The notes beneath the pieces are model-generated. The model was not told where the DNA came from. It saw only the letters and a list, made by a program, of their open reading frames with translations, and searched no databases. A program made the translations under genes and the position numbers. Below, piece after piece: positions 14,715 to 57,170 of a stretch of 64,000 bases of DNA; the first letter of the stretch is position 1; each line of letters begins with the position of its first letter. The DNA is from Eledone cirrhosa. Taxonomy: Eukaryota. Location: assembly GCA_964016885.1 (NCBI GenBank), contig OZ024751.1, positions 33,108,001 through 33,172,000 of the forward strand, given 5' to 3'.

Positions 14715-16440
14715 ACTAAACTTTGCACCAATTCCTCAAAACCTATTTCTATATTCCAGAAATTAAACATGATATTTAGGACTTCTGCAGAAAACTCAGA
14801 AAAGGGGAACACATTTCTGAGGGGGTAAATGATGATGAATCATTCATCAAAATCAAAAACTATTATCAACTCCCAAAGGGCAGGAATATAGCCCACGGTG
14901 AAAGTAGTAAATACATCTGATATGATCCTGTGGAGGAAGTGGAAATGAGACAAGCAAAACCCAACTTCACCAGACAGCAATAGATCCATTTTTAACAGGA
15001 AAGAAGTATTATCAAGTTAACTATCAAAGGACCTACTTTCTCAAGGACACAAATAACTACATTTATATATTAGACAAAATATGTTACAGGAAATACATAC
15101 TCTGAGGAATCCAACAATTATAAATTGTACAATGTGATGAAACATTCCCTTGATTTACTAAACCCATATCGAAATTGTCAAAACGATAAGATAGTAGACT
15201 TTACCAACAGTTTTAGATGTAGAAAAAGTTTCATCTGTGGAAACAAAATATACAAAACTAATTAATGAGACATACGGAAAGGCGAAATCCAATTTTGTGA
15301 ATATACTCTCAGCAGTTGACTTTGAACTAATACCCATTATAGCCAGCCTGACACATCACCTACGTAATTTCCTTGACATCTTACTGAAGTCTCTCCTCAA
15401 ACACATTTGGAGCTTCATACGAGAAGACCTATATATACTCAACCATCTAAATAGTAAAAATCAAAAATATGCATGGTTTCGTTTGATGTTGTGAACCTAC
15501 ATAGCAACATTCCACACGATTACGGAATTGAAACAATTAGATACAGGCTAGATTCATTTCGAGCAACCAGACCGTTTGCTAGAAAATTCATTATAGATGG
15601 ATTTAATTTATTTTAGAAAACAGCAATTTCTTGTACAGCGACAAAAGTTAAAAAAAGACAAAAGGAAAATGGGAATAAATGTTGTACCAAAATAAACCCG
15701 ACCTAGACACGAGATACCATGAATTAAATATCTACGAACAAACCTCACAAATGTCTGGATAGGAATTAAGTTGCTGTATAAAAGAACATTGGAAAAGATG
15801 CCTAGACAGCTGTTTTATTTCTTTGCGGGGAGGGGATAATCTTGACAAACGAAAACTCTTTCTAAACCACATGTTTAGTAGAGGCGTCTAATTTTCTATA
15901 GACTTCAGTAAAGAAAGGCTTTCCTTTTTAGACACACTTGTGACACAAAGAAACAAAATTTAGAAAAGCACTAGCATATATTTCAAACATATCGTCTCCC
16001 AAGTATTTCCCTGTTTTACATATTATCCAAACTGCTCCCGTAACAATATTGCACTTAACTTCACGAAACACATCTGTACATTAATCTCAAACAGCAAGAG
16101 ACCATAGACTAGATGTGATGAAAAAATACTCATCATGAGAAAATAATTCCAGAATCTAATCCAAAATAATAATCAAGAAGGAAGAGAATTTAAAATCTAG
16201 GATCTTCAGGAAACAAAAGCAATAACAAAGAAATGTTTAGATTATATATTCCAACATTTCATCCAAAGAACACAGATATCTACACAGACACATATAACTA
16301 AACGAGAAATAAATGAAACACTTCTTACAGAAATAATCAATTATAGAATGTAAAAGACAGCCAAACTCACCATAAAATATAATTTTGTATCATAAACGTA
16401 CATGCATATAAAAATCATTAGTTGCGTCTTCAAAACCATA
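14715..16440 (+). mobile_element. Degenerate Penelope-like element reverse transcriptase region
   Basis: Ordered frameshifted motifs: NFAPIP, PIIAS, NFLDILLKSLLKHI.SFIRED, VSFDVVNLHSNIPHDYGIETIRY, LENSNF, WKRCLDSCFI (YxDD site), FLD. Confidence 0.8.
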
Positions 16441-25521: not shown

Positions 25522-25581
<60 letters not shown>

Positions 25582-25868
25582 AAATAACGAAACGAAATTA
25601 AATTTCGTTTCGTTTGTAACTCACTTATGTATGACTGACGCTTAAACAATTAAGTTAAAAATGTACATCCACATATGTATACTGAAATACTAGTATGCAT
25701 ATGAATACACACACGTATACATATGTAGATGTACCAAGTTTTTCACTGGTCACTTTACTGTGAGTGTCCAGCTATTCTGTATGTAAACACACAGACAAAC
25801 AGGTTTTTAGAGTCATACTGGTTTTTGAGGAAACAGCTTTCCTCTATTCTCCAGAAAGCCAGATAAGG

Positions 25869-25913
25869 AATATTGAACTAGTTTCGTTGTTGTTACAACT
25901 CATCAGCAATATT
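25869..25913 (-). ncRNA. Minimal type-I hammerhead ribozyme (inverted copy)
   Basis: Exact reverse complement of 26120-26164. Confidence 0.8.
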
Positions 25914-26119
25914 TACCTATCTTAAGCGTCAGTCATACAAAAGTGAGTTACAAACGAAACGAAATTTAATTTCGTTTCGTTATTTGTTTTTATCGTCTCC
26001 CTTGAACCGGTACGTACTCACACTCTATGCAAATTAGTCTGCCCACTAGTAATTTTCATAGAAAAAGCATATAACGATATGTGCTTTTACGATTCTCCAG
26101 AAAGGCCGGAAGATAGGTA

Positions 26120-26164
26120 AATATTGCTGATGAGTTGTAACAACAACGAAACTAGTTCAATATT
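26120..26164 (+). ncRNA. Minimal type-I hammerhead ribozyme
   Basis: Stem I AATATTG/CAATATT, CTGATGA, stem II GTTGT-aaca-ACAAC, GAAA, palindromic stem III ACTAGT, GUU cleavage triplet (cut after 26157). Confidence 0.8.
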
Positions 26165-26385
26165 CCTTGTCTGGCTTTCTGGAGAATAGAGGAAAGCTGT
26201 TTCCTCAAAAACCAGTATGACTCTAAAAACCGGTTTGTCTGTGTGTTTACATACAGAATAGCTGGACACTTACAGTAAAGTGACCAGTGAAAAACTTGGT
26301 ACATCTACATATGTATACGTGTGTGTATTCATATGCATACTAGTATTTCAGTATACATATGTGGATGTACATTTTTAACTTAATT

Positions 26386-26453
<68 letters not shown>

Positions 26454-26456
<3 letters not shown>

Positions 26457-26812
26457 AGGAGGAGATGAGAGTAAAACTCTCATCTCCTCCTCTTCCTTAC
26501 CCCCCCCCCCCTCACTTTTTCCCAATCTCATACATCAATCTTAAATTATTTTTCATATGTTGATTTAAAACTTCACTCTTCACAAGTGTTTTTTAAGCTT
26601 CATATCATGTATCCCTATTTTATCTGATGAAAACGCAGATATCATCCCATGATGATATTTGTTTTTGAAATGCGCATAATAAAATACTTGGAACTCTTTC
26701 AACCATCTTTTCATCTTATATATTATTTATACTCCAGTCATACAAACTGTAGAGTGCTTCTTATCCGATATTTGCATTGCTTTATTGTGCTACAATAAAA
26801 CTCACCTCCTAC
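26454..26812 (+). mobile_element. Short hammerhead-bearing element (PLE pLTR-like) in (TA)n, with 5' fold-back
   Basis: 19-bp hairpin at 26454-26494, hammerhead at 26616-26686, 3' end CAATAAAACTCACCTCCTAC-(AT)n identical to the copy at 56913-57170. Confidence 0.8.
26616..26686 (+). ncRNA. Type-I hammerhead ribozyme
   Basis: Stem I TATTTTAT/ATAAAATA, CTGATGA, long stem II (CAGATATCATC-ccat-GATGATATTTG), GAAA, palindromic stem III ATGCGCAT, AUA triplet (cut after 26678). Confidence 0.8.
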
Positions 26813-56830: not shown

Positions 56831-56912
<82 letters not shown>

Positions 56913-56922
<10 letters not shown>

Positions 56923-57167
56923 AGATCAAAAGATGGTTAAAAGAGTTGCATGTATTTTATTATGCGCATTTCAAAAACAAATATCATCATGCAATACTAT
57001 TTGTGTTTTCATCAGATAAAATAGGAAGACATGATATGAAGGTTAAAAAACACTTGTGAATAGTGCAGTTTTAAATCAACATGTGTATACTCCAGTCCTA
57101 CAAATTGTAGAGTGCTTCTTATCCGATATCTGCATTGCTTTATTGTACTACAATAAAACTCACCTCC

Positions 57168-57170
<3 letters not shown>
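56913..57170 (+). mobile_element. Second copy of the 26454-26812 hammerhead element, with 5' inversion, in (TA)n
   Basis: 56913-57085 is the reverse complement of about 26554-26726; 57086-57170 matches 26728-26812 in sense. Confidence 0.85.
56953..57023 (-). ncRNA. Type-I hammerhead ribozyme (homologue of 26616-26686)
   Basis: Core, stem I and stem III are identical; differences are confined to stem II. Confidence 0.8.

Follow-up and report, generated by a model that had tools for sequence, protein, structure and literature searches.

Structure of the insert

The window, that is, the whole 64,000-nt stretch of Eledone cirrhosa DNA analysed here (contig OZ024751.1, positions 33,108,001 to 33,172,000), contains an inverted hammerhead-bearing insert between two (TA)n microsatellites. 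Unit positions 1-466 are numbered along 25924-26389, and the parts of the insert and its surroundings are as follows.

about 25522-25578, flank, no strand: left (TA)n target microsatellite
25574-25643, minus strand: 70-nt tail of the left arm, unit positions 70 to 1; its outer end is the tail-end start site
25644-25923, minus strand: remainder of the left arm, unit positions 466 to 187, head-to-tail with the tail
25853-25924, minus strand: hammerhead copy in the left arm (Rfam Hammerhead_HH9, 40.5 bits, E 3.4e-08, under the gathering score of 52)
25920-25925, no strand: inversion junction where the arms meet, with about 2 nt of microhomology
25924-26389, plus strand: right arm, one full 466-nt monomer; its outer end is the pre-tail start site
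25951-25981, plus strand: hairpin within the tail
26109-26180, plus strand: type I hammerhead in a long stem I, with palindromic stem III and a predicted cut at 26157/26158 (Rfam Hammerhead_HH9, 37.7 bits, E 2.9e-07, under the gathering score of 52)
26389-26454, flank, no strand: right (TA)n target microsatellite
26455-26812, plus strand: neighbour outside the insert, the 3' end of a Hydra-type Penelope-like element (PLE); it has an 81-nt tail and a minimal hammerhead (~26619-26683) of its own

The segments 25643-25923 and 26110-26390 are 99% complementary over 281 nt, and a second pair, 25574-25645 and 25922-25989, is complementary at 97-99%. An earlier note on this DNA had described an inverted insert with ~99% identical arms lying between (TA)n tracts, which is what we found. 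Read on the minus strand, the left arm runs through unit positions 187-466 and then 1-70 and thus contains the end-to-start junction of the unit, as had been claimed, while the right arm covers positions 1-466. Five sites differ between the arms. The variant at unit position 274 is common to both and was seen elsewhere in one turn of one other insert. The monomer, previously put at ~470 nt, is indeed a tandem unit, with a period of 466 nt in the window and 465-469 nt across inserts. As read from the sequence, the hammerhead has a complete core and a stem III formed by a 6-nt palindrome; the earlier note had described it in the right arm, and the left-arm copy is complete as well. Tripling the monomer gives ATG-started frames of at most 50 codons, in agreement with the reported lack of an ORF.

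Size and composition of the family

The exact 36-mer of the hammerhead occurs 5,098 times in the 3.0-Gb genome, and the control 0 times. A genome search with the unit gave 589 candidates, 40 of which were scored to yield 170 matches, and the full-length matches listed were 98-100% identical. The junction between the tail end and (TA)n occurs 1,934 times genome-wide. A second subfamily (B), with a 469-nt unit that is ~88% identical to the first (A), accounts for 277 tail/(TA)n junctions. Inserts are dispersed, run head-to-tail for up to ~26 turns and lie mostly in (TA)n. The insert in the window is a copy of a young, high-copy, non-coding hammerhead repeat family, a non-LTR retrozyme, with units of 466-469 nt. 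The candidates and the exact 36-mers bear out the earlier proposal of a young retrozyme family rather than a single copy. The opposite case, a single-copy unit whose end-to-start junction occurs nowhere else, did not hold, as the unit is multi-copy and this junction is the normal one of the family.

For the counts below, 171 distinct inserts were sampled, 103 from subfamily A and 68 from B; contig C1 supplied most, and most were chosen by the tail junction. Overlapping loci of one insert, L097 (a duplicate of L096) and low-complexity partial matches were dropped before counting, and L088 was counted as two inserts. Ends were counted in 164 complete inserts, leaving out 7 that were cut by locus edges. 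The sampled inserts consist of turns of the unit and nothing else, without LTR structure.

The unit was also found in 6 sequencing runs of unrecorded kind and in no run on record as RNA, which says nothing on expression. Among four runs examined, X1 showed very high depth and loose ends at tail/(TA)n, as expected of DNA. Run X4, labelled as another organism, gave one self-closing 496-nt contig (466 + 30) at depth 4.5 with one haplotype and three A>G changes; note that contigs cannot show an RNA circle.

Insertion anatomy

Tail-out inversions made up 116 of the 164 complete inserts, and the remaining 48 were single arms. In 103 of the 116 inversions, one arm ended at unit positions 64-72 (about 70) and the other within 10 bases of the unit end (about 461-466); the fixed outer ends lie 70-75 nt apart. 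The paired fixed ends were likewise seen in 31 of 36 inversions among the 51 inserts that had been found by the unit or the ribozyme, independently of the tail. Both flanks were TA-like in 111 of 164 inserts, and exact informative target duplications of 12-56 nt were present in 11 of 164, most targets being pure repeats that are unable to show one. Where the arms meet, overlaps were mostly 0-5 bases. No sharp pile-up of 5' ends at the ribozyme cut site was found among 280 ends; 24 of the 280 fell in unit positions 240-259, a mild excess just downstream of that site, which suggests that some templates were probably linear.

In work with a purified PLE protein (PMC11167929), both strands of AT-rich DNA were cut and reverse transcription began at two closely spaced internal sites, which delimit the tail seen in the genome. 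PLE inserts have been described as tandem and inverted, with a tail at one end and targeting to (TA)n (PMC8557442). The present family has two alternative 3' ends bounding a tail, as well as tandem and inverted insertions in microsatellites, as PLE-mobilised elements do. Because of the two-end tail signature, we have little doubt that a PLE drives the insertion of the retrozyme, in support of the mobilisation proposed earlier. Insertion into (TA)n with an inversion had been proposed together with it; this holds, with the inversion being the usual form of the family and no one-off. The expectation of genomic tandems joined at the end-to-start junction was confirmed, whereas the circularly permuted ends expected along with them gave way to two fixed positions.

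Neighbouring PLEs and a candidate helper

The 3' end at 26455-26812, just to the right of the insert, comes from an autonomous PLE with at least 2,280 candidates in its family. The Hydra-type family also forms tail-out inversions, with ends at query positions 212 (20 matches) and 293 (38 matches), 81 nt apart, and has a reverse transcriptase (RT)-endonuclease frame of 584 aa (L266:3662-5413). It shares 11 of 12 positions of a motif at the retrozyme tail start, at a like distance from the first end and in 27 of 30 copies, a likeness noticed after the fact; the copy in the window, likewise noticed after the fact, matches at 12 of 12. By this resemblance the Hydra-type PLE is a candidate helper, which we regard as only a lead. 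An intact 780-aa Neptune-like PLE frame, P0001, lies at L089:3052-5394 (C1 near 29.02 Mb). Its family is very young, with all 150 scored matches at 98-100% and 31,073 PLE-like candidates at first look; no DNA match of the retrozyme unit to P0001 was found among the matches listed. Above the Pfam cut-off, RVT_1 alone was detected in P0001 and nothing in the Hydra-type frame, and for this reason the clade names rest on motifs given in the accessible text of PMC8557442. The RT plus GIY-YIG frame of an autonomous PLE was not found in the retrozyme unit.

Several further PLE remains lie around the sampled inserts. L088 holds a retrozyme insert in (TA)n behind another PLE, and inserts often occupied (TA)n tracts that lie within other PLE insertions or terminate them (L088, L019/L022, L030, L089 and the window). 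In the window, a second piece of the Hydra-type PLE with a minimal hammerhead, itself a tail-out inversion, is present at 56908-57170, and degenerate PLE reverse transcriptase fragments are present at 14756-16248 (plus strand). The flanking DNA contains at least 6 other minimal hammerhead families, several of them with palindromic stem III (e.g. L046:305, L048:1073, L083:742, L143:1507).

Turns, arms and haplotypes

In 56 inversions of subfamily A, the mean arm-to-arm distance was 0.55% vs 3.4% between inserts, and the own arm was within the closest tenth for 50 of the 56. At least one ribozyme site was read through in 228 of 288 arms and at least two in 95 of 288, the latter in line with a template of more than one turn, as first deduced from the insert. 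Turns of one insert usually share one haplotype and inserts differ from each other (52 haplotypes in 62 subfamily A inserts). Arrays of 19 and ~26 turns were uniform over both arms, with two small changes in the ~26-turn array. Some long arrays showed higher-order repeats (L076 with period 3, L078, L082), indicating that local expansion after insertion also occurs.

Other irregularities were seen at single loci. The higher-order turn patterns of L076, L078, L082 and L072 point to local expansion or to dimeric or trimeric templates. L080 and L133 are mosaics of haplotypes or subfamilies, which suggests template switching or recombination. In L132 and L173, the length of an A-run at unit position 366 varies by turn while substitutions are fixed, consistent with per-turn slippage or assembly noise.

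Conservation of the ribozyme

Variants were called on the ribozyme strand against the commonest letter per column; polarity is assumed, and sites are not independent. A variant was scored as fixed when present in all covering turns of an insert. None of the 167 fixed variants fell in the 30 columns of the core and stem III (p ~0.004), while the single-turn variants fell there in 16 of 499 cases, matching the share of these columns. The cut-site base was U or C across inserts, with G in 2 of 6 turns of one insert. Across the 32 distinct ribozyme regions compared, paired cells amount to 96.9%. Stem II and the long stem I show one compensatory pair apiece, and both may be single inherited events. 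Each short tandem unit carries a type I hammerhead whose Rfam score is under gathering and whose core is invariant. To judge from these alignments, the ribozyme is apparently under purifying selection. This conservation would favour a cycle of cutting and circularisation, since we infer that a route through linear multimers should tolerate or even favour dead ribozymes.

Mutation spectrum

A-to-I editing, after reverse transcription, leaves a strand-specific cluster of A>G changes. The fixed variants (n = 167) comprised 59 A>G, 26 T>C, 16 G>A and 19 C>T, and the single-turn variants (n = 499) comprised 60 A>G, 64 T>C, 71 G>A and 59 C>T; the ratio of A>G to T>C differed between the two sets (Fisher p 0.003). 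When variants unique to L133 were removed from the rare fixed set, 17 A>G vs 8 T>C remained among 59 (~p 0.1). Seven A>G changes of L133 are shared with no other sampled insert and recur in each turn that covers them, and the pattern across part of this cluster has exactly 3 genome matches, all in the L133 insert. An A>G cluster in L132 has exactly 4 genome matches, all in one insert and on both arms. Repetition of an A>G cluster in each turn is what a circular monomer would predict. A third cluster is not private, with 69 matches in 7 loci; it is on account of these loci that we regard its variant as the founder of a mobile sub-lineage, and the distribution fits a circle or a uniform linear multimer alike. 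Of the 104 inserts that were multi-covered, only 23 carried a variant found in no other insert of the sample.

The neighbour preference of ADAR was not significant at the A>G sites (5' G in 6/59 vs 50/296, p 0.17), and pairing at these sites was on a par with that of other adenosines (0.63 vs 0.61). Selection for G-U wobble pairs could be an additional source of the excess of A>G over T>C, and donors of the private clusters may be absent from the assembly used.

Proposed mechanism and alternatives

We consider it probable that the family spread by a PLE enzyme that, in copying a circular RNA monomer, went round it more than once, sometimes after A-to-I editing, from both ends of a PLE-cut site. 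Tandem inserts would be transcribed, and their hammerheads, probably as dimers via the palindromic stem III, would release monomers that ligation would turn into structured circles, some of which would be A-to-I edited. The PLE reverse transcriptase-endonuclease would make a staggered cut of both (TA)n strands and prime two cDNAs on the same RNA, either side of the tail. Each cDNA would circle its template for less than one to ~17 turns, and the two would be joined at short microhomology, giving a tail-out inversion and a target-site duplication. Ribozyme cleavage is not needed for insertion in vitro (PMC11167929).

The same PLE insertion could instead have started from a uniform donor array whose transcript, a linear multimer left uncleaved, served as template, with no need of a circle. 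We regard this as unlikely, though it has definite points in its favour: one haplotype is common to 7 loci with near-identical long arrays, unprocessed RNA is the main substrate in vitro (PMC11167929), and the GUU triplet and the one-pair stem III predict slow cleavage (general knowledge and PMC7229834). Against it, editing of a linear multimer should vary by turn, but the private A>G clusters are identical across turns and arms, and the ribozyme core is invariant among templates. Moreover, the diversity of haplotypes among subfamily A inserts would require many separately homogenised donors, and on C18 one arm runs for 17.6 turns, longer than every run in one direction at the six further loci that share its haplotype.

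Rather poor prospects attach to the idea that unequal crossing-over and gene conversion lengthened short inserts where they lay and made their turns uniform, a process suggested for vertebrate retrozymes. The higher-order patterns of L076, L078 and L082 agree with it, and local amplification has been proposed in a preprint (bioRxiv 10.64898/2026.07.22.740005); it leaves unexplained how one haplotype came to lie on two opposite arms, why the A>G bias is strand-specific and why arrays of 19-26 turns have none or almost no turn-specific changes. A reading of the unit as an autonomous PLE's terminal repeat (pLTR), with the inserts as 5'-truncated debris of that PLE, appears very improbable. The architecture is that of PLE ends, and at L091 (1620-1660) and L035 (1199) retrozyme arms directly abut PLE coding fragments; these fragments are however from two different PLE families, neither of them that of P0001, 19 non-microsatellite inner flanks share no upstream element continuing the unit, and long arms hold further turns of the unit and nothing else. 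The direct joins at L091 and L035 may reflect a template switch or an insertion with deletion. Inverted repeats beside microsatellites are difficult to assemble, but an assembly or long-read fold-back artefact is scarcely credible given the two fixed end positions, the target duplications, the locus-specific haplotypes, the five arm differences of the window copy, and an independent run that has the tail/(TA)n junction in 12 contigs together with the head-to-tail joint.

Comparison with known elements

We return to the proposed copying of a circular monomer by a PLE enzyme. Reverse transcription of circles into tandem DNA by PLEs was put forward as a hypothesis for metazoan non-LTR retrozymes (PMC7229834), and the mobilisation mechanism is still listed as open in a 2026 preprint (bioRxiv 10.64898/2026.07.22.740005). 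The family resembles the former in that its tandem repeats are short, non-coding, low in GC and free of LTR features and hold a type I hammerhead, in its long target duplications, thousands of copies and structured monomer, and in an amphibian-like one-pair stem III with a palindromic loop; its units are longer (466-469 nt vs 170-400 nt in PMC7229834). Its monomer folds as a circle with z ~-10 vs 30 shuffles in both subfamilies, and its copies are dispersed and mobile with target duplications longer than 4 bp. On this sequence evidence, the element has the tested defining features of metazoan non-LTR retrozymes and is of a known class. Tail-out inverted inserts, two fixed ends and (TA)n targeting, all present here, are not mentioned in the accessible portion of PMC7229834. 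Circles were shown in that work and reverse transcription was hypothesised, whereas the situation is the reverse in this family. The LTR retrozymes of plants, marked by type III hammerheads in LTRs and a 4-bp duplication, are not matched by the type I hammerhead and long duplications found here.

Vertebrate retrozymes interpreted as PLE derivatives are likewise non-autonomous hammerhead repeats that co-occur with PLEs, and their range of 51-972 bp spans the present unit (bioRxiv 10.64898/2026.07.22.740005). In the available text of that preprint, the link to PLEs comes from co-occurrence and pLTR similarity, while here it comes from insertion anatomy; no pLTR homologue of the unit was found except the 11/12 match to the tail of one PLE family. 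With Poseidon PAc (PMC11167929) and the Hydra and Neptune clades (PMC8557442), the family shares two start sites bounding a tail, both-strand cutting, an inverted 5'-truncated copy, tandem copies, (TA)n targets and a hammerhead. It differs from the PLEs in the accessible parts of these accounts by having no protein, a tail of ~70 nt vs 30-40, many identical turns on both arms, and a ribozyme apparently under purifying selection. MRC1 and other non-autonomous Chlamys PLEs are likewise multicopy head-to-tail inserts made by a PLE, but their 3' sequence is shared with the helper, and canonical hammerheads are missing from most Chlamys, according to the sections of PMC8557442 that were available. 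We found no report of edited retrozyme inserts, or of the tail-out two-end anatomy in retrozymes, in the open-access literature.

Significance

Read from its copies, the family is unusually direct genomic evidence for the proposed retrozyme mechanism. The hypothesised step, reverse transcription of a circle into tandem DNA by a PLE, would leave countable marks in this family and thereby becomes testable: the PLE signature can be read at the ends to the base, and a circular template predicts private RNA-type changes that recur in all turns and on the two arms alike. The findings bear on how PLE inverted inserts form, with two primers on one RNA, and on the role of PLE hammerheads, and in vitro tests could draw on the family for a substrate of 466 nt and for candidate enzymes. 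It would also show, in nature, a target-primed enzyme that turns a small circle into kilobase concatemers.

The fullest form of this reading is that the genome records rolling-circle reverse transcription of ADAR-edited circular RNA, in which a PLE dimer primes both break ends on one ribozyme-made circle for up to ~17 turns per arm, RNA edits pass to the germline and new mobile sub-lineages are founded; we hold its chances to be evenly balanced. If it is true, no other single source would contribute as much heritable change to this retrozyme family as RNA editing.
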